DNA of 64,000 nt from a bacterium (GTDB lineage: Bacteria; Patescibacteriota; Patescibacteriia; Patescibacteriales; GWC2-42-12). The notes below the pieces were generated by a model, which was given only the letters and a program-made list of their open reading frames with translations, ran no database searches and was not told the DNA's origin. Of this stretch, positions 623 through 52,806 are shown piece after piece (within the stretch, counting starts at the first letter, position 1; the number at the start of each line of letters is the position of its first letter). The translations under genes were made by a program, and so were the position numbers. Location of the stretch: the NCBI GenBank assembly GCA_030649205.1, contig JAUSGE010000014.1, positions 28,717 to 92,716 on the forward strand, in the 5' to 3' direction.

Positions 623-740
623 TATATTTTTCTACCCGGCTTTAGCCGGCCGTTAATCCAAATTATTTTAACTCCGGCTTCACCCCGTTAAATCCCTTCG
701 GGACGCAAAGCGTATTTAACGGGGTAAAGCCGGGCAGAAG

Positions 741-4178: not shown

Positions 4179-4243
4179 AACTGATATTGACTTAAATCAT
4201 ATTTTATTTAATAATAACTAATATAAAAAGATAAAGCAAATTG

Positions 4244-4324
4244 CTCCCACAAATCAACAAATCCGCTACAAATAATACAAATATTATTCGTGATATTCGT
4301 TGCAGATTTGTAGATTTGTGGGAG
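4244..4324. promoter_or_regulatory. imperfect ~22 bp inverted repeat in a divergent intergenic region (candidate operator / divergent promoter)
   Basis: ctcccacaaatcaacaaatcc (4244-4264) versus cagatttgtagatttgtgggag (4303-4324), 20/22 complementary. ACAAATC x2 and AGATTTGT x2 half-sites, AT-rich spacer. Lies between the minus-strand GT4 start (4178) and the plus-strand ugd start (4360). Confidence 0.45.
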
Positions 4325-4359
4325 ATTAAGGTTTTATTTGGTTTAAAGTTTATTTTCTT

Positions 4360-5754
4360 ATGAAAATACTCTATATCGGCGGAGGCTATGTTGGAGCTTG
4401 CTCGGCCGCGGTCAGCGCGGACAGCGGGCATGAAGTATTGGTTTATGACGTTAACTCCGAACTGGTAAAAAACTTTTCCTCCGGCGATAAGGATAAAATA
4501 GAAGCCTGTCTGTTTGAAAAAGGCTTGGGCGATTTGATTATCAGAAATCAAGCGCGCCTTAAATTTACCGATAGTTTAGCCGCGGCGGAAACGTTTGTCA
4601 GCGAGGCCGGGGCGGTTTTCATGTGTCTGCCCACGCCCGAGCGCGACGGTACGGGCGAAACCAACCTGGAAATTTATGAAGCGGCCGCCAAGACATTGGC
4701 TCAAGTGCTGGCTAAGCGAAATAACGGGGCGCAAAATCAGTATGTTCTGTTAGTTAATAAAAGCACGGTGCCGATTGATATGGTGAACCGCACCAAAGAA
4801 ATTATGCTGGCCGGCGGCGTGAAAAATTTTGGCGTGGGCTCAAATCCGGAATTTTTGGTTGAAGGCAAGGCGATTGAAGGCTCAATCAGGCCGCCGCGCG
4901 TGGTGGTCGGAGCCGAGAGCGAAAAAGATTTCGCGATTTTCAGAGATATTTACTCCCGTTTCGCCGAATCTTCCGGCATCGGCTACTTTGAAGTAAGTCC
5001 GGCCGAAGCCGAAGCGAGCAAGCTCTTAGCTAATTACATGCTGTTCAGCCGCTTGGCCAATTGCTTTGACGTGGCCGGGCGGGTGTGCGAAAAGTTTCCG
5101 GGCTTGCGGTTTGAAAACGTCAGAAAAATTTTAATCGCGGACAGCCGCATCGGCGACTGGGGATTTTACGACAGCCTGTTTGCCGGCGGCAGCTGCTTTA
5201 TCAAAGACGCGCGCTCACTGGCGCATCAGCTTAAAGCCAAAGGCGCGGCCGCGGATTTAGTGGATAATATTTTGGCGGCCAATCAGCGCCAGCTGGATAA
5301 TTTTTTAGGCCGGGCCGAAGCCGAATTGAATTTTAACTGGGCCGGAAAAACCGCCGCCCTGCTGGGGCTGGCTTTTAAGCAGGATACCAACGACATTCGC
5401 AATTCCGCGTCTTTGCAAGCGGCGGAATTTTTACTAGGCAAGGGAGTGGCGCAAATCAGAGCGTATGATCCGGCGGCCGGCGCGAATTTTTTAAAATATT
5501 TTTCCAAGAGTGAAGACAGCGGAAAGATCAGCTTGGCCGGCTCGGAAAGCCTGGCCCTGGCCGGCGCCGACGCGTTAATCATTGCCACGGACTGGCCGCA
5601 ATTCAGGGGGCTAACCGGTTTGATTATGGAAGAATTGCCCAAAGGAGCGCTGATCATGGATGGCCGCCGCATGCTGGCGCAAAGCTATGGCGAGCTGGCG
5701 AATGCCGGCTATGATATTATCGCGGTGGGATCGCCGGTGATTAGAAAGGGTTGA
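4360..5754 (+). CDS. UDP-glucose/GDP-mannose dehydrogenase family (probable UDP-glucose 6-dehydrogenase)
   Basis: N-terminal Rossmann motif MKILYIGGGYVGACSA. Catalytic GGSCFIKD motif. Full three-domain length (464 aa). Confidence 0.85.
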   Translation: MKILYIGGGYVGACSAAVSADSGHEVLVYDVNSELVKNFSSGDKDKIEACLFEKGLGDLIIRNQARLKFTDSLAAAETFVSEAGAVFMCLPTPERDGTGETNLEIYEAAAKTLAQVLAKRNNGAQNQYVLLVNKSTVPIDMVNRTKEIMLAGGVKNFGVGSNPEFLVEGKAIEGSIRPPRVVVGAESEKDFAIFRDIYSRFAESSGIGYFEVSPAEAEASKLLANYMLFSRLANCFDVAGRVCEKFPGLRFENVRKILIADSRIGDWGFYDSLFAGGSCFIKDARSLAHQLKAKGAAADLVDNILAANQRQLDNFLGRAEAELNFNWAGKTAALLGLAFKQDTNDIRNSASLQAAEFLLGKGVAQIRAYDPAAGANFLKYFSKSEDSGKISLAGSESLALAGADALIIATDWPQFRGLTGLIMEELPKGALIMDGRRMLAQSYGELANAGYDIIAVGSPVIRKG

Positions 5755-5755
5755 G

Positions 5756-5903
5756 GCCTGACCTAAAGAAATTATTTTTCCCGCTTAGATAAAATCTGTG
5801 TATTTTTTACAAAAAATTACTACGATTTTACCACCGTTTAGTTGTTTCGGCGCCGAGGCATGCACCGAGGAGCCGCGATAAAAATAATTTCTTTAGGTCA
5901 GGC
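5756..5903. repeat. perfect 24 bp inverted repeat flanking ~100 bp (long stem structure or MITE-like element)
   Basis: gcctgacctaaagaaattattttt (5756-5779) is the exact reverse complement of aaaaataatttctttaggtcaggc (5880-5903). Confidence 0.8.
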
Positions 5904-5952
5904 GCATAACATGGATTAACTCCTGAATTTTACGAGCAGACATATGATTTTT

Positions 5953-6024
5953 AGGCTGAATTTGCCGTTAAGAAAATGGCATGTTTAAGCGGAGCGAGTT
6001 TGCCATTTTTAGGCAAATTCAGCC
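5953..6024 (+). promoter_or_regulatory. long imperfect hairpin (~24 bp stem with one bulge, ~19 nt loop) in the 5' leader of the short UGDH-like gene
   Basis: aggctgaatttgcc...aaaatggca (left arm) pairs with tgccatttt...ggcaaattcagcc (right arm). Sits 68 nt upstream of the ATG at 6092. Confidence 0.6.
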
Positions 6025-6091
6025 GTGCCGCAGGCAAAAATCATCCTGGATGCGAGTAAATATTCAGGAATCAATCCGCAATCAAAACATT

Positions 6092-6946
6092 ATGACTATC
6101 GGTTTTATCGGCCAGGGCTGGATCGGAAAAAATTACGCTGATGATTTTGAGCAGCGCGGTTTCACTGTGACGCGCTATAGTTTGGAGGCGGAGTATAGCG
6201 GCAACAAAGATAAAATTAAAGATTGCGATATTGTATTTATCGCCGTGCCTACGCCGACCACGCCGTCCGGCTATGATGCCAGTATTGTTAAATCAGCGGT
6301 CAAGCTGGTTGGCCGAGGCAAGATCGCGGTTATAAAATCAACCATGCTTCCGGGAGCGACCGAAGAAATTCAGGCGGAAAATCCGGAGATTATCATTCTG
6401 CACTCGCCTGAATTTTTGACCCGTTCCACAGCCGATCATGACGTAAAACGGCCGCCGCGAAACATTATCGGACTGCCCAAAGATAACGACGGATACCGGA
6501 AAGCCGCGCGATTGGTTTTGAACTTAATACCTCAAGCGCCATTCAACCTGATCTGCGCCGCCAAAGAAGCGGAGATGATAAAATATGTCAGGAACTGCCA
6601 GGGCTATTTCAGGGTAATTTTCGCTAATTTGGCCTATGATTTGGCCGCGGCCATCGGCGCCGACTGGCAAAAAATTGAATCAGCCATGGCGGCCGACCCG
6701 ATTAACGGCGGTTATTATTTTAAGCCGGTCCACGACCGCGGACGGGGCGCCGGCGGCCCGTGCTACATTAAAGATTTCGCGGCTTTTGCCAGGCTATACC
6801 AAGAAAAAACCGGCGATGAAGCGGGCGGCAAAGTTTTAGCCAGCCTGGAACATAAAAATATTGAATTATTGGCGCAAAGCGGTAAAGATTCTGATTTGCT
6901 TAAAGGCGTTTATGGGGAAGGCGCGGTTAACAAAATAATTACATAA
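6092..6946 (+). CDS. short UDP-glucose/GDP-mannose dehydrogenase-family protein (~284 aa; N-terminal NAD domain plus catalytic Cys, no C-terminal UDP-binding domain)
   Basis: Start chosen at MTIGFIGQGWIGKNYA (Rossmann GxGxxG) rather than the ORF-track start at 5981, which would run through the hairpin. A GGPCYIKD motif parallels the GGSCFIKD of the upstream paralog. Confidence 0.6.
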   Translation: MTIGFIGQGWIGKNYADDFEQRGFTVTRYSLEAEYSGNKDKIKDCDIVFIAVPTPTTPSGYDASIVKSAVKLVGRGKIAVIKSTMLPGATEEIQAENPEIIILHSPEFLTRSTADHDVKRPPRNIIGLPKDNDGYRKAARLVLNLIPQAPFNLICAAKEAEMIKYVRNCQGYFRVIFANLAYDLAAAIGADWQKIESAMAADPINGGYYFKPVHDRGRGAGGPCYIKDFAAFARLYQEKTGDEAGGKVLASLEHKNIELLAQSGKDSDLLKGVYGEGAVNKIIT

Positions 6947-13143: not shown

Positions 13144-14592
13144 ATGAATAATAGATTATTATTAGTCAACCCGCCGTTTAATGTCGCCAAAGACAATTAC
13201 GACAGCTCGGTATCGGTCGGTTTATTAAGCCTGGCCACCTATTTGGACTGGCGCGGCGTGCCGGTAAAACTTATTGATGGCGTCCGGCAGAAAGATTTTT
13301 TAAAAATTTTTCAACAGGCAGCCGCCGCGAGCGACTTAATTTGTTTTTCCGTTATGACCATGCAGATACCGCAAGCGCTGGAATTATCCGAGCTGGCAAA
13401 AGAGATTAATCCGCAAAGCAAAATTATCTGGGGCGGCGCTCATCCGACTTTTTTCCCGGAACAAACAGCCAGGCATAGCCTGATTGACGCGGTGGTAATA
13501 GGCGATGGCGAGTATGTTATTTTTGATTTGTTTAACGAGCCGGACTGGCAAAAAGTTAACGGCATCGCTTATAAAAAGGGCGGGGAAGTCGTAATTAATT
13601 CTCGGCAAAAGCCGCTTGATCCTAAAACCATGCCGCTGTTTAACTGGGAACTTGAGCCCAGAGAAATACTGGAAAATTTGAGTTTAATCCCGACGCTCAC
13701 TTCCCGCGGCTGTCCTCATCGCTGCGCTTTCTGCATCAACGCCATTCTAAAAAATAGCTGGCGCGCCAGAACCGTTGATCAGGTATTGGAAGATTTAAAG
13801 ATCATAAGCGGCAAGGATTATTTCGCGGGCAAGCCTTTAAGATTTTGGGACGAAAATTTTTTTGTTGACATTAGGCGGGCTAAAGCCATAGTTAATGGCA
13901 TGATTGAGCGCGGGCTTGAGCGGCCCTGGGAGACGACCGTGCGGGCTAATTATATCAGCGCGGCCATGGTTGACGATAATTTTATGGGAAAAATGAAGCA
14001 GTCAGGCTGTTATCTTTTATCGTTCGGCGCCGAATCCGGCTCGCAAATTGTTTTGGATAAAATTAAAAAAGACATAACGCCCGAGCAGATTATTTATGCC
14101 GCCAAGCAATGCCTAAAGCACAAGATTATTCCGCAGTTTTCTTTTATGGTGGGGCTTCCCGGAGAATTAAAGCAAGACATGAAATTAACCGTAAAATTGA
14201 TAGATAAATTGATTAAGTTAAGCGACCAGGTGCAGATTTTAGGCCCGCAGGCGTTTCGGCCTTACCCCGGGTCGGAGTTATACCTGGAATGCGTAGCTTC
14301 GGGCTGGAGCGCTCCCGAAACGCTTCCGGCCTGGAGCCATTTGGTAAAAAATCAGCTGAATTATTTGCAAGTGAAGAACTTTAACTGGGTTAAGCACAAG
14401 GATTTTGTTGATTCCATGGAAGCCTACGTGCGCTTCGGCGCGCATAGTATTAAAAGCGCCATGGGGTCGTCGGTTAAAGCGAGAAAGTTTATTAAATTAG
14501 CTTTTGTTTTAATCTGCCAGCTAAGATGGAAATTAAAATTTTTCGCCTGGCCGTTTGAATTCAAACTGGCGAAAAAATTTGTGACGAAATGA
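13144..14592 (+). CDS. B12-binding domain radical SAM protein (class B)
   Basis: N-terminal Rossmann-like B12-binding region (LLLVNPPF..., GGAHPTFFP) followed by the TSRGCPHRCAFC cluster (Cx3Cx2C). Confidence 0.85.
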   Translation: MNNRLLLVNPPFNVAKDNYDSSVSVGLLSLATYLDWRGVPVKLIDGVRQKDFLKIFQQAAAASDLICFSVMTMQIPQALELSELAKEINPQSKIIWGGAHPTFFPEQTARHSLIDAVVIGDGEYVIFDLFNEPDWQKVNGIAYKKGGEVVINSRQKPLDPKTMPLFNWELEPREILENLSLIPTLTSRGCPHRCAFCINAILKNSWRARTVDQVLEDLKIISGKDYFAGKPLRFWDENFFVDIRRAKAIVNGMIERGLERPWETTVRANYISAAMVDDNFMGKMKQSGCYLLSFGAESGSQIVLDKIKKDITPEQIIYAAKQCLKHKIIPQFSFMVGLPGELKQDMKLTVKLIDKLIKLSDQVQILGPQAFRPYPGSELYLECVASGWSAPETLPAWSHLVKNQLNYLQVKNFNWVKHKDFVDSMEAYVRFGAHSIKSAMGSSVKARKFIKLAFVLICQLRWKLKFFAWPFEFKLAKKFVTK

Positions 14593-27079: not shown

Positions 27080-28432
27080 ATGAAAGTAATATTATTGGAT
27101 ATTAAAGGCGCCTCGGCCAGAAAATGCGTTAATAAGGATTTATCCGGAGGCATGGGAACCGCCACCTGGGTCGGCGACTCATTTTTGGCCCGTGTTTTTG
27201 AGCGCGTCAAAAAAACAAACGTAGTTCTGCCGGAAATCACGATCGCTTATCTGGCCGCAATTTTTAAAAAATTCGGCTGGGAGGCCGAGGTGGCTGAGAT
27301 TAAAATAGGCTTGGAAAATTTTCGGAAAAAAGCGGATTTGGTTTTAGTGTTAAGTTCTATCGTTGATTGCGGCCATGAATTGGCTATCGTAGGCGAGCTT
27401 AAAGAAAAAGGCTATCATGTTGGAGTGTTCGGATCTTTCGCTACGGCTGTTCCGGAATTTTTTTCCAAGGCTGACTTTGTGATTAAAGGCGAGCCGGAAG
27501 CGGGCGCCTGGCAGATCGCTTCGCATAACTTATTGCCAAAAGGAATTATGGAAGTCGCGCCAATTGCCGACCTTAATTCTTTGCCGTATCCGGATTGGAG
27601 TTTTTTTCCGATTAAAAAGTATTCTTATTCTCCGGCTTTAAATAAAAAACCGGTCGTCGCCATGCTGGCTTCGCGGGGCTGTCCATATGGCTGTTCATTC
27701 TATTGCCCTTATTCAATAAATTCCGGCAGAACCTGGCGCGCGCGGAGCGTTGATAACGTGATTGGCGAGATGGAATATTTGAAGAAAAATTATGGCGTTA
27801 AGGCGGTTGATTTTAGAGACCCGGTTTTTACCTTAAACCGCGAGCGAACCGTGAAATTGGCTCAAGCCATGATAAAAAATAATTTAGGCATAATCTGGTC
27901 TTGCGAAACCAGAATTGATTGCTTGGATAAAGAACTTATTTTAATTATGAAACAAGCGGGTTTGCGGCATATCAATGCCGGCGTGGAGTCATTTAATGAA
28001 GAGGTGCTGAAAAAATCCAAGCGCCTGCCGATTCGCGCCGTTCACCAGGAAGAGATAATTTCTTTTTGCCATAAAAATGGTATTTCTGTCGCCGCTTTTT
28101 ATATTATCGGGCTTGAAGGCGACACTAAAGCCAGCGTCAAAGAGACTATTAAATATGCCAAAAAATTAAATACTCTAGTAGCTCAATTTACCATTAGCAC
28201 GCCCTATCCCGGAACGGAATTTTTTAATCAAGCTAAAGCGCAGGGCAGGCTGCTAACGCAGGCTTGGGAGCAATATGATATTTATACTCCGGTCGTAGAG
28301 CATGAAAATTTAAGCTCGGCCGATCAACTGGAGTTAAAAGAAGAAGCTTTTATCGCCTATTATTTTCGACCGCGTTATTTGCTGACCCATATGCCTAAAT
28401 ATTTATTGCAAAAATTTTTATGGCCGTTTTAA
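27080..28432 (+). CDS. B12-binding-domain radical SAM paralog with non-canonical Cys cluster (Cx3Cx3C)
   Basis: ASRGCPYGCSFYCPYS; codons verified at ~27672-27710 (tgt cca tat ggc tgt tca ttc tat tgc). Rest of the core is conserved with the paralogs (RTWRARSVD). Confidence 0.75.
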   Translation: MKVILLDIKGASARKCVNKDLSGGMGTATWVGDSFLARVFERVKKTNVVLPEITIAYLAAIFKKFGWEAEVAEIKIGLENFRKKADLVLVLSSIVDCGHELAIVGELKEKGYHVGVFGSFATAVPEFFSKADFVIKGEPEAGAWQIASHNLLPKGIMEVAPIADLNSLPYPDWSFFPIKKYSYSPALNKKPVVAMLASRGCPYGCSFYCPYSINSGRTWRARSVDNVIGEMEYLKKNYGVKAVDFRDPVFTLNRERTVKLAQAMIKNNLGIIWSCETRIDCLDKELILIMKQAGLRHINAGVESFNEEVLKKSKRLPIRAVHQEEIISFCHKNGISVAAFYIIGLEGDTKASVKETIKYAKKLNTLVAQFTISTPYPGTEFFNQAKAQGRLLTQAWEQYDIYTPVVEHENLSSADQLELKEEAFIAYYFRPRYLLTHMPKYLLQKFLWPF

Positions 28433-29238
28433 TTACCGGCGCCAAAGGATTTATCGGTTCGCGCTTAGTATCTTTTTTAAAAGAGGCGGGTTTTGATTTG
28501 GTAAATTTTGCCGCTGATATTACTGATCGTCAAGCGGTTTTAAGCTGGTCAAGCGATAAGAAAATTGAGGCGGTTATTCATCTGGCCGCGATTATGGGCG
28601 GGCGCAATAAAAGTTTGTTTAAAAAGATAAATATTGACGGGACCGGAAACATAATTGAGCTGTGCAAAAAAATCAGAGCCGGCCGTTTAATTTTTATGTC
28701 AAGTTTAAGGGCGCTTTCGTCCGAGCCAGATGATCCTTATGTTAATTCCAAAAAAGAAGCGGAAAAATTAGTTATTGACTCCGGCCTGCCTTATGTAGTT
28801 TTGCGGCCAAGCATGATTTACGGCCCGGGCGATAAAAAAAATATTGGATTTTTGCTAAAAATCGCCAGAACTTTGCCGCTAGTTCCGGTTTTTAATTTTA
28901 GGCTGCAGCCTTTATTTGTTGACGATGTTGCCAGAGTTATTATGGCTTGTTTTAAGGCCGCGCCAAACCAGACAATCAATCTGGCTGGCCAAGAAACTAT
29001 CAGCTATGCCGATTTGCTGGAATTATTAAAAGTTAAAGGTTATAAAATAAGGAGGCTTAACGCGCCGCGGCTGTTTAATTTTTTACTGAAGATTTTTTCT
29101 TGCCTGCCTTTTTCGCCGCTGCCGTATTGGCAGGTCAAAACTCTGTTGGCGGATGAAATTTTTGCAGGCAGCCAATGGCCCGGGAAGTTCAACATAAAGT
29201 GGACTTCTCTGGAGGAGGGAATGGCAAAAGTGGTTTGA
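28420..29238 (+). CDS. NAD-dependent epimerase/dehydratase-family SDR (short, 272 aa)
   Basis: ITGAKGFIGSRL Rossmann motif; YVNSKKEAE (YxxxK). Confidence 0.7.
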   Translation: MAVLITGAKGFIGSRLVSFLKEAGFDLVNFAADITDRQAVLSWSSDKKIEAVIHLAAIMGGRNKSLFKKINIDGTGNIIELCKKIRAGRLIFMSSLRALSSEPDDPYVNSKKEAEKLVIDSGLPYVVLRPSMIYGPGDKKNIGFLLKIARTLPLVPVFNFRLQPLFVDDVARVIMACFKAAPNQTINLAGQETISYADLLELLKVKGYKIRRLNAPRLFNFLLKIFSCLPFSPLPYWQVKTLLADEIFAGSQWPGKFNIKWTSLEEGMAKVV

Positions 29239-43813: not shown

Positions 43814-45487
43814 TTGTTTTATAAAATAATAAATTTTTTATATATGCCATTGGGAGAAAAATCAGAAAAAATCGTTATTGTGGGCTTTGGCTGGGTCGGT
43901 CAGGCCAACGCGCTGGCGCTTATTAGAATGGGCTTTGAAGTTTTTTATTATGACGTCCTGGCGCCGAAATACCACTATGCGGATAAATACCTAGGGTTTT
44001 ACGAAAAAATAAAACCGCTGGATAATCTCCTGCAAGCCGACAGCCCCGACACTTGGTATGTAATATGCATTGGCGACCGGGTGAATGAAAACGGACATCA
44101 GGATATCTCTTTGATTGAGAGGGCTTTAGAATTATTGCGGCCGGCGCGGGGAAATATTATTCTGCGCTCAACGGTTTTACCGAAATATCTGAAGGGCTTG
44201 CCTTTTGATATTTATTTGCCGGAATTTCTCCATGAAATAAACGCGGTTGAAGATTGCTTAAACCCTTTTATCTTCGCTTTAGGCAGCTGGAAAAAAATTA
44301 TTTATCCGAGTTTTATTGAACAATGGGAAAAACGGGCTTACAAAGTTTTTAAAGGCGCGCCCGAAGAGGCCTCATATATTAAATATTTATCCAATATTTG
44401 GAACTCCCTGCGCGTTGCTTTTGTTAATGAGTTCGGCGACAGCATTTCCCTCCCGCAGAATAAAGAACGGCAGAAAAAAATTGCCAATATCATTGATTTC
44501 CTGTTTGATAAAAAAAGTTATCTGCGCTACGGCCAAGCCTACGGCGGCCATTGCCTGCCGAAAGATACCCAGGCTTTCTTAACCTGGAAAGAAGAAGCTG
44601 GCCCGTCGCCGATTCTGCGAGCGATCCATGAATCAAACATTTTACATCAGCAAATTACCGATGCTTACGCTCTGCCGCAATGGTTTTCTTCGTGGGATTA
44701 TGATAATTACCGCCGCGCGACCGCTTTAATCACGCGCTGGTGGCATAATTTTAATTCTTTAAAAATAATTAAGTCTACCCGGCAAATTTTAAAACCAGCC
44801 GTCAAGCTGTTTTCTCTGCGCGCCGCCAATAAATCTTTGCCCGAGATTAAAAACAACTGGGAAAAATTAGCCAAAAAAAATCCGTACTATTATGCAAACT
44901 CCGAGACTAAATCACGGCAAAAAGTAGATGAATTTGAGCTTCGCCAAAGCGGCGAAAATGATTACTTAAAATATATTTCTGGCGATGATTTGCTTCATAA
45001 ATTCTTGGGTGATTTTAAGGATAAAATCGCGCTGGACATTGGCGTTGGAGTCGGACGCATGACTGAATTTTTTAGCCAAGACTTTAAAATAATTTATGGC
45101 ATTGATATTTCGCCCAACATGCTAACTATTGCCGGCAAACGTTTATCTGCCCTCAATAACATTGAGCTAGCCGCCAGCGCGGGCGATGACATTCCCTTTA
45201 GCGATGCCGAATTTGATTTAATTTTTTCACATTTAACCTTTAAGCATTTGCCGAATACAGCCATAACGCAAAATTATTTTAAGGAAATTTTCCGGACATT
45301 AAAACCCGGCGGCTTAGCCAAAATACAGCTGCGCACCGGCGCCACGCCGCATTTTTGGCAATGGTTTTACGGCGTGTCGCTGACGCCGGAGCAAGCGTTA
45401 TCTTTGGCCGATAAAGCTGGATTACAAATAGCTAAAACAGAAATAGAAAATAGCAAGAGCTTATGGGTTTGGGTTAAAAAAATATAA
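43814..45487 (+). CDS. fusion: UDP-glucose/GDP-mannose-dehydrogenase-like N-terminal region plus C-terminal class I SAM methyltransferase
   Basis: IVIVGFGWVGQANALAL (Rossmann) ... YGGHCLPKD (the UGDH-family GGxCxxKD catalytic motif) ... C-terminal LDIGVGVGRMTEFF with LKPGGLAKIQ (MT motifs I and post I). Alternative start M at 43844. Confidence 0.6.
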   Translation: MFYKIINFLYMPLGEKSEKIVIVGFGWVGQANALALIRMGFEVFYYDVLAPKYHYADKYLGFYEKIKPLDNLLQADSPDTWYVICIGDRVNENGHQDISLIERALELLRPARGNIILRSTVLPKYLKGLPFDIYLPEFLHEINAVEDCLNPFIFALGSWKKIIYPSFIEQWEKRAYKVFKGAPEEASYIKYLSNIWNSLRVAFVNEFGDSISLPQNKERQKKIANIIDFLFDKKSYLRYGQAYGGHCLPKDTQAFLTWKEEAGPSPILRAIHESNILHQQITDAYALPQWFSSWDYDNYRRATALITRWWHNFNSLKIIKSTRQILKPAVKLFSLRAANKSLPEIKNNWEKLAKKNPYYYANSETKSRQKVDEFELRQSGENDYLKYISGDDLLHKFLGDFKDKIALDIGVGVGRMTEFFSQDFKIIYGIDISPNMLTIAGKRLSALNNIELAASAGDDIPFSDAEFDLIFSHLTFKHLPNTAITQNYFKEIFRTLKPGGLAKIQLRTGATPHFWQWFYGVSLTPEQALSLADKAGLQIAKTEIENSKSLWVWVKKI

Positions 45488-46388: not shown

Positions 46389-46403
46389 ACTTCCTATGAA
46401 AAA
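46389..46403. repeat. left copy of a 14-15 bp direct repeat (target-site duplication) flanking the IS
   Basis: acttcctatgaaaaa, identical to 47848-47862. Confidence 0.7.
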
Positions 46404-47847
46404 TGTAAAAATTTTATGATAATGTCCTACTAGCGTCAAATAGAAATGTCCTAACTGATGTGATAAGGTGTTTAGTTGTTTTTAATCAACTAAACATAAA
46501 ATCACATGGCTACGAACATAACTATGTCTTTACCCGAGGTAAAAAAGTATGACATTATCAAGCAAGTAATTAACAAAGAATTGAACGGCAGCCAAGCTGC
46601 CGGACTGCTGAATCTGACAACGCGCCAGATCAGGCGGCTAAAGAAAAAAGTAGATAAGCGCGGAATCAAAGCCTTGATCCACGGCAACCGAGGCAAGCCG
46701 GGCAACCGCCGCCTGCCGGCTAAAGAAAGGAAAAGAATAGCCGGCCTGATAAAACAGAAGTATCCGGATTTCGGCCCGACTCTGGCCGCGGAGAAATTAA
46801 CTGAATTGGACAAGATTGAGCGCAGCCGCGGCGCCGTTCGTTCCATCATGATCGCGGAAAAAATCTGGCAGCCCAAGTCCAAGAAAAAAGAAACCCACCG
46901 GGAATGGCGGCAGAGAAAAGCCTCTAAGGGCGAGCTGATCCAATACGATGGCTCTTACGAACATTGGTTTGAGGATCGGGGCGGAGAAATCTGCCTCTTG
47001 GCCTCGATTGATGACGCTAACAGCGAAGTCCGAGCCAGATTTGATGAACACGAGGGCGTTGAGCCGACATTCAGCTTCTGGCGGGACTACATTGAGCGTT
47101 TCGGCAAGCCCAATGCGATTTATGTGGATAAATTCAGCACTTATTCGATGAACCACAAACTGGCCAAAGAGAACCCTGATACCCTGACCCAGTTCGAACG
47201 AGCCATGACAGAACTGAATGTCGGCATCATCCACGCCCACAGCCCGCAAGCCAAAGGCCGGGTAGAAAAACTGTTCGGAACATTGCAGGACAGGCTGATT
47301 AAAGAATTAAGGCTGGCTGGCATTTCCACCATCAAAGAGGCAAATGAGTTCCTTGAAAGAGTATTCCTGCCGAAGTTCAACGCCAGGTTCATGGTTGAAC
47401 CCAGAAGCCGGGCTAATCTGCATAAGAAATTAAATGAGCAGGAAAAGAAAAAATTAGATTCCATTTTCTCGCGGCAGTACCGGAAAGTCGTGATGAACGA
47501 TTTCACCGTCAGCCACAAGAAACATTGCTATCAGCTGGAAAAAATCCAGCCGGTAACAATCTGCAAGCAAGATAGGGTTACCGTGGAAGAGCGGCTGGAC
47601 CGAACGATCCAATTCCGCCTCCGAGGCAAATATCTTAATTACAGGCTGTTGCCGGAAAAACCCAAAAAGATCAGCGACGCCAAAAACAGCTTGCAATGGG
47701 TCATCCCTAAGTCAACCGCCCACATACCGCCGGTCAACCATCCCTGGCGCCAAACAGCCAATTTAGAATATCTTAAAAAACTAACCAAAGTGTCAAAGTA
47801 GGACATTTCTAAAAAACGCCAAATAGGACATTTCTAAAAGACCTTTA
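46404..47847 (+). mobile_element. insertion sequence, IS481/ISNCY-like (single rve/DDE transposase, TGT...ACA termini, ~50 bp imperfect terminal inverted repeats)
   Basis: IR-L tgtaaaaattttatgataatgtcctactagcgtcaaatagaaatgtcctaa versus the reverse complement of IR-R gtaaaggtcttttagaaatgtcctatttggcgttttttagaaatgtcctac. Flanking 15 bp direct repeat; GC higher than the host locus. Confidence 0.8.
46506..47801 (+). CDS. DDE transposase (HTH plus rve integrase core), IS481/ISNCY-like
   Basis: N-terminal HTH (LNLTTRQIRRLKK). D (IQYDGSYEHWFE), D (AIYVDKFSTY), E (HSPQAKGRVEKLFGTLQD) are characteristic of rve-type transposases. Confidence 0.8.
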   Translation: MATNITMSLPEVKKYDIIKQVINKELNGSQAAGLLNLTTRQIRRLKKKVDKRGIKALIHGNRGKPGNRRLPAKERKRIAGLIKQKYPDFGPTLAAEKLTELDKIERSRGAVRSIMIAEKIWQPKSKKKETHREWRQRKASKGELIQYDGSYEHWFEDRGGEICLLASIDDANSEVRARFDEHEGVEPTFSFWRDYIERFGKPNAIYVDKFSTYSMNHKLAKENPDTLTQFERAMTELNVGIIHAHSPQAKGRVEKLFGTLQDRLIKELRLAGISTIKEANEFLERVFLPKFNARFMVEPRSRANLHKKLNEQEKKKLDSIFSRQYRKVVMNDFTVSHKKHCYQLEKIQPVTICKQDRVTVEERLDRTIQFRLRGKYLNYRLLPEKPKKISDAKNSLQWVIPKSTAHIPPVNHPWRQTANLEYLKKLTKVSK

Positions 47848-47862
47848 CACTTCCTATGAAAA
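47848..47862. repeat. right copy of the target-site duplication; includes the ATG of the downstream epimerase gene
   Basis: acttcctatgaaaaa identical to 46389-46403; the atg at 47856 is the start codon of the 47856..48860 CDS. Confidence 0.7.
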
Positions 47863-48860
47863 AAATATTAATTACCGGCGGCGCCGGTTTCATCGGCTAT
47901 CATCTCGCCAATGAACTTCTAAAAAACCCCGCCAATCATCTGACCCTAGTTGATAATCTTCAGCGCGGCCGGATAGATGAAGATTTTAAGGCGCTTTTAA
48001 AAAATAAGCGGGTGCAATTCATTAAAGCAGACTTAACCGACCAAAAATTTTACAAAAAATTAGACAAAAATTTTGACCAAGTCTATCATCTGGCCGCCGT
48101 CAACGGCACCAAGTGGTTTTACAAAATGCCGCAGGAAGTGTTGCGCATTAACACTTTATCTTTAATTTATATCCTTGAATGGATAAAAAGTCTTAAGAAA
48201 AAAACAAAACTCTGTTTTACCTCTTCCAACGAGGCCTACGCCGGCGCGCTCGCGTCGTTTAATAAATTGCCTATCCCAACGCCGGAAAAAGTCCCTTTAG
48301 TTATCAGTGACACTTATAATCCGCGCTGGACTTATGGCGCCACAAAATTAGTCGGAGAGCTTTTCGTTATCTTTTACGCTAAAGTATATAATTTTCCGGC
48401 GATTATTGTCCGGCCGCATAATTTTTACGGCCCGCGCGCCGGCTATGATCATGTGTTGCCCGAATGGTCGCAAAAAATTATCGCTCGCCAGGACCCGTTT
48501 ACTATTTGCAGCCCGAAAGAAACCAGAACCTTCTGCTATATCACCGACGCGGTCAAAGCCATGCGAATGCTTATGGATTCATCAATAACCGATAACCAGC
48601 CGATTGAAACCGTCCATATCGGCGCCAGCGATGAAATTACCATGGAAAAATTGGCGGAGAAGATGTTTGAAGCGGCCGGCTGGAAGCCAAAAAAAATAAT
48701 CAGCCAGCCCTCGCCGGCAGGCAGCGTTAAGCGCCGCTTGGCTGATATAACAAAAATAAAAAAATTAATCGGCTGGCGGCCGGAAACAAAATTGGCGGAC
48801 GGGCTGAAAAAAACTTTTGAGTGGTACACGGTTCATTCTAAAAAATATGGTAAAGCTTAA
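47856..48860 (+). CDS. NAD-dependent epimerase/dehydratase (extended SDR)
   Basis: [16 protein letters not shown]; YGATKLVGE (YxxxK). Confidence 0.75.
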   Translation: MKKILITGGAGFIGYHLANELLKNPANHLTLVDNLQRGRIDEDFKALLKNKRVQFIKADLTDQKFYKKLDKNFDQVYHLAAVNGTKWFYKMPQEVLRINTLSLIYILEWIKSLKKKTKLCFTSSNEAYAGALASFNKLPIPTPEKVPLVISDTYNPRWTYGATKLVGELFVIFYAKVYNFPAIIVRPHNFYGPRAGYDHVLPEWSQKIIARQDPFTICSPKETRTFCYITDAVKAMRMLMDSSITDNQPIETVHIGASDEITMEKLAEKMFEAAGWKPKKIISQPSPAGSVKRRLADITKIKKLIGWRPETKLADGLKKTFEWYTVHSKKYGKA

Positions 48861-52419: not shown

Positions 52420-52502
52420 TTTTTATGGAGTTATTATTAAATTAACGGTATATTGAAATAATAGCACTATTCTAAAAAGTGTCAATAACCTAATGACCCC
52501 TG

Positions 52503-52531
52503 TTGACACCTTTTGACATATACGGTAAAAT
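52503..52531 (+). promoter_or_regulatory. near-consensus sigma70-type promoter (TTGACA-17 nt-TAAAAT) with an overlapping palindrome GTGTCAA...TTGACAC
   Basis: ttgaca at 52503-52508, taaaat at 52526-52531; the ATG at 52540 follows ~8 nt later (leaderless-type). Inverted repeat gtgtcaa (52479-52485) / ttgacac (52503-52509). Confidence 0.55.
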
Positions 52532-52539
52532 GGTCATAT

Positions 52540-52788
52540 ATGGCTCAAGAAATAAAATCCAACGAAGTTTATACTACGGCCGAAACGCAGCAATTGCTGA
52601 AAATAAGCTCCAGTACGATTAAGCGCATGCTTAAAAAAAAGCTGATTAGAGCCAATAAGGTTGGCGGGCAGTATCGTATTTTAGGCAAGGAAATTTTGCG
52701 CTTGGTTTCTCCGGAGGTTGAAAAACAAGCGATTAAATCGTATTTAAAATTGAAGCAAAAAGTTGTGGATAAAATAAATAAATGGTAA
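52540..52788 (+). CDS. small helix-turn-helix DNA-binding protein (excisionase/MerR-like HTH_17 type)
   Basis: YTTAETQQLLKISSSTIKRMLKKKLIRANKVGGQYRI is the classic excisionase-family HTH; start set at the ATG downstream of the promoter rather than 52513. Confidence 0.6.
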   Translation: MAQEIKSNEVYTTAETQQLLKISSSTIKRMLKKKLIRANKVGGQYRILGKEILRLVSPEVEKQAIKSYLKLKQKVVDKINKW

Positions 52789-52806
52789 TTTTTATTAGTA
52801 TCATTT

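Follow-up and report, generated by a model that had tools for sequence, protein, structure and literature searches.

The window analyzed here, a 64-kb stretch of DNA from an uncultured member of the Patescibacteria (CPR), is a surface-glycan biosynthesis cluster of about 60 kb. According to Pfam and NCBIfam scans, it encodes glycosyltransferases, sugar epimerases and dehydratases, aminotransferases, a Wzy-like polymerase, NeuB, and many B12-binding radical-SAM enzymes. Eight radical-SAM genes, localized between positions 13144 and 63326, are interspersed with glycosyltransferases and methyltransferases; those at 13144, 14589, 19645, 24300, 48972, 54609, and 61887 encode B12-binding proteins, and the gene at 27080 has the radical-SAM domain only. 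A fusion protein combining the UDPG_MGDH central domain with a methyltransferase is encoded at 43814–45487. The largest spacer of the window (52420–52806) contains a strong promoter TTGACA-N17-TAAAAT (52503–52531) and a small ORF on the plus strand (approximately 52540–52788, about 82 aa, MAQEIKSNEVYTTAETQQLLKISSSTIKRMLKK...), which, judging from sequence appearance only, resembles an excisionase- or MerR-type helix-turn-helix protein.

Near the left end of the cluster, two sugar-dehydrogenase genes are separated by a spacer that is the subject of this analysis. The upstream gene, ugd (4360–5754, plus strand), encodes a full-length, 464-aa member of the UDP-glucose/GDP-mannose dehydrogenase family (Pfam PF03721, PF00984, PF03720; NCBIfam TIGR03026, 252 bits) and ends with a TGA stop codon at 5752–5754. 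The downstream gene (6092–6946, plus strand) encodes a short UGDH-like protein of 284 aa, in which the NAD-binding and central domains are present and the C-terminal UDP-binding domain is absent. In the first-pass annotation this gene was described as a truncated paralog of ugd. A recent truncation does not agree with the comparative data, as the two proteins share only 25% identity, and the short protein belongs to a large conserved family of about 285 aa (4834 matches at E ≤ 1e-40). Its best genome-level relatives are found in Paceibacteria-type MAGs (Vogelbacteria, Kaiserbacteria, and others), with at most 66% amino acid identity.

The start codon of the short gene is well defined. An NCBI MAG carries an identical 284-aa protein, annotated as "hypothetical protein Q7R92_01115 [bacterium]", and homologs start 1–12 codons ahead of the conserved IGFIGQG motif, i.e., at the same motif as the ATG at 6092. 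A longer ORF of the same frame, beginning at 5981, adds 37 codons that have no counterpart in the homologs. Hence, the gene starts at 6092, and the extension is non-coding, as had been suspected when the ORF was seen to read through a hairpin.

Upstream of ugd, a sigma-70-type promoter-like site TTGACT-N17-AATAAT (4187–4215, plus strand) matches the consensus at 10 of 12 positions and lies in a block conserved in the related loci L092–L095. This site is likely the operon promoter from which both ugd and the spacer are transcribed. Downstream of the spacer, tightly packed co-directional genes extend for about 23 kb.

The spacer that separates the TGA of ugd from the ATG at 6092 is 337 nt long (5755–6091) and contains two palindromic elements, designated A and B, which are unrelated to each other. 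Element A is a 148-nt unit (5756–5903) that begins 2 nt past the ugd stop codon. The perfect 24-bp inverted repeat reported initially (5756–5779 and 5880–5903, arms 100 nt apart) is confirmed, and the arms can be lengthened to 29 nt (5756–5784 and 5875–5903) at 93% complementarity. The interior of A (5785–5874) is asymmetric, with an AT-rich sub-palindrome (5790–5808 and 5812–5830) on the left and a GC-rich segment (5846–5874) on the right. On its minus strand, it also contains an extended −10-like sequence, TGGTAAAAT (5833 to 5825). Within the 64-kb window, the arm sequence occurs at two sites only, even with three mismatches allowed, the expectation from shuffled sequences being 0.00.

Element B is an imperfect nested palindrome of 165 nt (5913–6077), in which an outer stem with 19-nt arms (5913–5931 and 6059–6077, 84% complementarity) encloses a middle inverted repeat (5944–5952 and 6036–6044) and a perfect 13-bp core stem (5954–5966 and 6012–6024), topped by an apical hairpin at about 5972–6010. 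The arms of A are perfect, whereas B contains indels. The second hairpin of the first-pass annotation (5953–6024) thus exists, but it is only the core of a larger structure that ends 14 nt, rather than 68 nt, before the ATG.

The strength of these structures is far beyond chance expectation. Folding of the entire spacer yields −130 kcal/mol, with z-scores of −9.8 (plus strand) and −11.8 (minus strand); z = −8.1 was obtained for B alone and −7.5 for A folded as DNA. The energies on the two strands are −57.8 and −61.9 kcal/mol for A, and −67.8 and −67.4 kcal/mol for B, so that neither strand is favored for either element, and the G-U asymmetry is absent. As both elements fold equally well on either strand, they are palindromes at the level of DNA and not strand-specific RNAs.

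The impression that this spacer is atypical for the locus holds. Abnormally strong folding was observed in three of the 13 window spacers tested (623–740, 4179–4359, and 5755–6091), all within the first 6 kb, and from the ugd promoter to position 29238 no gap other than 5755–6091 exceeds 50 nt. The region upstream of ugd (4179–4359) contains a palindrome at 4244–4324, with 40-nt arms composed of ACAAAT/ATTTGT repeats and a fold z-score of −7.3. Its position is kept in L088, at 82–90% identity, and it is recognizable in L094/L095. In contrast to A and B, it is a candidate conserved operator or 5′-leader structure. The remaining spacer, 623–740, situated between a TPR gene and the Wzy-like gene (z = −9), is discussed below.

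Coding, promoter, terminator, and known-RNA readings do not fit the 337-nt spacer. All ORFs within it are at most 38 aa long, and none is credible. The best sigma-70 match on either strand agrees with the consensus at eight of 12 positions, compared with 10–12 of 12 in control divergent spacers of this genome. An intrinsic terminator can be rejected as well: no terminator-like site was found in 5755–6091 on either strand, neither stem is followed by a U-tract (the sequences past the stems are GCATAACAT and GCAATCAAAAC), and genuine terminator-like hairpins of this window are compact, with GC-rich stems of 9–10 bp. The hairpins do not sequester a Shine–Dalgarno sequence. A search against Rfam 15 yielded no family at the gathering score over the whole window; at E ≤ 10, the spacer region produced only noise from microRNA hairpin models, whose best E-values were 0.17–0.7.

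These results bear on two of the three explanations initially offered for the region. A structured small RNA finds no support, since both a strong promoter and a terminator are absent from the spacer. A cis-regulatory leader or riboswitch is not supported either, given the absence of an Rfam match, the absence of a like structure among approximately 40 homologous genes whose upstream regions were examined, and the lack of strand preference; a conserved cis-regulatory RNA finds no support on the same grounds, i.e., a structure not kept upstream of orthologs, no curated family, and no strand-specific folding. A and B have no homolog among the sequences compared. The remaining candidate, a MITE-like miniature element, fits best, as a class only.

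The comparison with relatives that had been called for is informative. Among the more distant homologs, all with at most 66% amino acid identity, ugd is directly upstream of the short gene in none of 80 GTDB loci, and 16 GTDB homologs (52–66% identity) scanned for upstream inverted repeats have none comparable. A closer clade, with 73–80% amino acid identity, keeps the gene order GT4 (minus strand), ugd, short UGDH, epimerases. Among its syntenic relatives at 73–79% identity, the distance from the stop codon to the ATG is just 1–2 nt in three lineages: the site is empty, with 1 nt in L087 and L094/L095, and 2 nt in L086. Other lineages have an unstructured spacer of 24 nt (L091), a palindrome of 70 nt (L089), a palindrome of 133–148 nt (L092/L093), or 489 nt that include an unrelated 126-aa ORF without a Pfam match (L088, 1734–2114). 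The spacer of the window is not a remnant of the latter ORF, as no similarity was found.

The structure of A and B is thus not conserved: in relatives the junction is either empty or filled differently. Hence, the 337-nt spacer is a lineage-specific insertion rather than a conserved leader, and the two genes, to judge from the sequence comparison, abutted ancestrally.

The palindromes at the junction of sister genomes belong to a recurring family, GTCATTGCGAG...CTCGCAATGAC, with the termini TGTCATTGCGAG...CTCGCAATGACA, the internal sequence GAGATTGCTTCG, and an AT-rich middle. Copies are located at 521–580 in L089, at 2368–2508 and 4283–4330 in L092/L093, at 776–882 in L094, and at 2355–2440 in L091. 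Two copies, in L089 and L092, occupy the ugd/short-UGDH junction, whereas the L094 copy lies in the spacer between the glycosyltransferase gene and ugd, and the L091 copy lies past the short gene. Members of the family have no obvious target-site duplication and no Rfam match, and a literature search retrieved no relevant paper on the GTCATTGCGAG motif. The 64-kb window contains no copy of this family, which is unrelated in sequence to A and B. Its spread over several positions demonstrates that palindromic elements without target-site duplications do enter this locus in sister genomes.

Two further palindromes were observed in these loci. A second family, with the core ACCCCGTTAAAT...ATTTAACGGGGT, is represented at non-homologous positions in the window (674–733, arms 674–693 and 714–733, within the strongly folding spacer 623–740) and in L092/L093 (700–760), where the L092 copy lies in the divergent spacer between the glycosyltransferase gene and ugd. 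In addition, a palindrome with GC-rich arms, TGTCATCCTCGGG...CCCGCCTGCGCGGGAATGACA, at approximately 4345–4480 of L092 adjoins a GTCATTGCGAG half copy, and both have TGTCAT...ATGACA termini.

The suggestion of a MITE-like element survives in part. Elements A (148 nt) and B (165 nt) are short (less than approximately 500 bp) non-coding units bounded by inverted repeats, and presence/absence polymorphism is evident from the empty sites in L086, L087, and L094/L095. On the other hand, copies and target-site duplications are missing. The search for other copies, proposed in the first-pass annotation as a MITE test, was negative wherever it was applied: BLASTN against 746 kb of related Patescibacteria loci revealed neither A nor B again, nor did BLASTN and the arm scan within the window, and the spacer has no BLASTN match in phage and plasmid collections. 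Exact 20–23-mers of the A arm have no match in GTDB species genomes and IMG/VR; an exact scan of JGI metagenomes produced two matches (L004 and L005), both chance hits in unrelated eukaryote-like sequence, and two IMG/VR matches to a 19-mer of B are also due to chance, as there is no palindrome there. The flanks of A (TGAG and GCATAAC) and those of B (AACAT and GCAATCA) contain no direct repeat.

The sole insertion sequence of the window is an intact-looking element at 46404–47848, with an ORF (46506–47801, plus strand) whose product is assigned to the ISNCY transposases by NCBIfam NF033594 (E = 2e-117; score 392 bits, cut-off 250). Each end of this element starts with TGTAAA and contains repeats of the TAGAAATGTCCTA motif, and it is flanked by a 15-bp direct repeat ACTTCCTATGAAAAA (46389–46403 and 47849–47863) that resembles a target-site duplication. 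Derivation of A and B from this element was considered and rejected, since their arms are unlike the ISNCY ends.

With moderate confidence, we interpret A and B as two unrelated non-coding foldback insertions of the MITE/REP-like class, orphan and lineage-specific, that are transcribed within the operon as stable intercistronic hairpins. The insertions would be confined to this lineage and would have separated the ugd stop codon from the ATG of the short gene. Since the spacer has neither a strong promoter nor a terminator and is the sole sizeable gap up to position 29238, it is probably transcribed as a part of a polycistronic mRNA, and transcription from the ugd promoter (approximately 4187–4215) would carry both elements into this message. 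There, A would form a near-perfect stem of 24–29 bp (about −58 kcal/mol), and B an imperfect stem of approximately 60 pairs (about −68 kcal/mol).

Such long duplexes might act as a barrier to 3′-exonucleases, thereby protecting the upstream mRNA, and/or serve as a substrate for RNase III, while the spacer would break the translational coupling that a junction of 1–2 nt allows. The predicted net effect is that expression of ugd is uncoupled from that of the gene array of about 23 kb downstream. In REP, ERIC, and Correia elements, structures of this kind can protect upstream mRNA from 3′ exonucleases, be cleaved by RNase III, and abolish translational coupling. For A and B, all such effects, including intercistronic punctuation, are suggested by analogy and predicted folding.

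The putative mobility of the two elements has to be weighed against other histories, as template switching in situ or selection for a function would leave the same pattern. One such reading, which we consider unlikely, is that the hairpins are not a relic of mobile DNA but a selected cis-acting intercistronic RNA signal for processing, stability, or attenuation that sets the ratio of ugd to downstream expression. The stems are indeed extremely stable, large hairpins are present independently at this exact junction in three related lineages out of eight (L089, L092, and that of the window), and the palindrome conserved in position in the operon's ugd leader indicates that the locus keeps structured DNA or RNA. 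However, three lineages manage with 1–2 nt between the genes, and the hairpins of different lineages are unrelated, those of L089 and L092 belonging to a dispersed repeat family that also occurs at other loci. Moreover, a signal acting in RNA is at odds with the symmetry of the two strands and the missing G-U asymmetry, and there is neither an Rfam family nor a U-tract nor a sequestered Shine–Dalgarno sequence. It is quite unlikely, in turn, that the palindromes grew in place, without mobility or function, by template switching during replication (quasi-palindrome correction) that made the inverted repeats of a dispensable spacer longer and more perfect. Such an origin agrees with A and B being single-copy in all searches made, with the missing target-site duplications, and with the appearance of B as an old palindrome decaying through indels beside a perfect A. 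Still, template switching leaves unexplained how approximately 335 nt of new DNA arrived at an ancestral junction of 1–2 nt, and in sister genomes dispersed palindromic elements are seen to insert at this very junction.

Both the geometry and the position of A recall an inverton, i.e., a 100-bp segment flipped by a site-specific recombinase so as to switch a promoter or a read-through block, with phase variation of the downstream surface-glycan operon as the outcome. Perfect inverted repeats flank an asymmetric interior, the element is situated in a 60-kb glycan cluster and immediately precedes some 23 kb of co-directional genes, and the minus-strand TGGTAAAAT would face these genes only once inverted. 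Nevertheless, this is very improbable. No tyrosine or serine recombinase is encoded in the 64-kb window, as assessed by Pfam and NCBIfam on ORFs of at least 100 aa after nested and overlapping shorter ORFs had been discarded, and the DDE transposase of the ISNCY element is the sole recombination enzyme. The TGGTAAAAT site matches the consensus at seven of 12 positions and has no −35 box, in contrast to the 10–12 of 12 in real promoters of this genome. An independent Logan contig (L001) crosses the boundary between the left arm and the interior in the same orientation and without a branch. No contig of the opposite orientation was found; the arms are identical in both orientations, and thus the exact-arm scans of GTDB and JGI would have detected a flipped form. 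The same contig stops at window position 5869, within A and short of the right arm, and this might be taken for a foldback chimera, i.e., an assembly or amplification artifact, a notion that is hardly credible. The independent assembly is identical to the window over the left arm and 90 nt of interior sequence, intact, conserved, and syntenic genes lie on both flanks, and analogous palindromes are present in several independent assemblies of relatives. Furthermore, perfect arms of 24 nt are shorter than the k-mer used by Logan, presumably 31, and so should not confuse the assembler. Nor is the end at 5869 a sign of inversion or assembly conflict, as a mixture of orientations would break at 5779/5780, which the contig crosses.

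If the interpretation of A and B as foldback insertions is true, its main consequence is a point of annotation: the spacer is non-coding, the short gene starts at 6092, and the ORF beginning at 5981 is spurious. It would also mean that long, perfect palindromes are tolerated even in the streamlined genomes of Patescibacteria and are gained within surface-glycan operons, the same gene junction having been struck independently in several lineages. The elements are real and statistically striking, yet probably fairly ordinary, with RNA-level side effects as their probable contribution. The finding would gain weight if the palindromes were mobile and targeted such junctions specifically, or if A were a phase-variation switch, since varying the surface glycans plays a central part in the episymbiotic life of these bacteria. 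The more far-reaching outcome is a long shot: either A is an inverton heading a surface-glycan operon of more than 20 kb in a CPR bacterium, or A and B, together with the GTCATTGCGAG and CCCCGTTAAAT families, would make up an undescribed class of junction-colonizing palindromes without target-site duplications, which would act as RNA-level insulators between cistrons in CPR glycan operons. A literature search for invertons, MITEs, or palindromic elements in Patescibacteria/CPR retrieved no paper.

Several known systems invite comparison. Invertons, e.g., fimS, the promoters of Bacteroides capsular polysaccharides, and Clostridioides difficile flgB and cwpV, often control capsule and surface-glycan loci, and like A, they have inverted repeats of about 20–30 bp on both sides of a short, asymmetric stretch that heads a surface-glycan gene array. 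They differ from A, which has no nearby recombinase, no convincing internal promoter, and no sign of two orientations. The attC sites of integrons are likewise imperfect-palindrome recombination sites situated behind a gene in a co-directional array, and the termini of A, GCCTGAC...GTCAGGC, match the attC R″/R′ consensus, RYYYAAC/GTTRRRY, at six of seven positions. This identity was rejected, as the AAC/GTT core triplets are absent (being GAC/GTC in A) and the stem is perfect, with 24 bp and no bulges, extrahelical bases, or unpaired central spacer; moreover, there is a single such site in 64 kb, and no integrase is encoded in the window.

Closer parallels are offered by small repeated elements. 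Bacterial MITEs, e.g., Correia/NEMIS in Neisseria, RUP in Streptococcus pneumoniae, and ERIC/IRU in enterobacteria, are, like A and B, bounded by inverted repeats, intergenic, and absent from the corresponding sites of relatives. They are non-coding units of 100–170 bp with inverted repeats of 20–30 nt, are often situated just past a stop codon, and are co-transcribed with their neighbors; in RNA they form long hairpins that may be cleaved by RNase III or may alter mRNA stability. In contrast to these families, A and B have no second copy, no target-site duplication, and no parent insertion sequence with matching ends. REP/BIME units and the GTCATTGCGAG family resemble A and B in another respect, as they are palindromes without target-site duplications that lie between co-transcribed genes. 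A and B are several times longer than the classical REP unit of about 35 nt. The GTCATTGCGAG copies of L089 and L092, unrelated to A and B in sequence, occupy the identical junction and have the same build, with arms enclosing an AT-rich middle.
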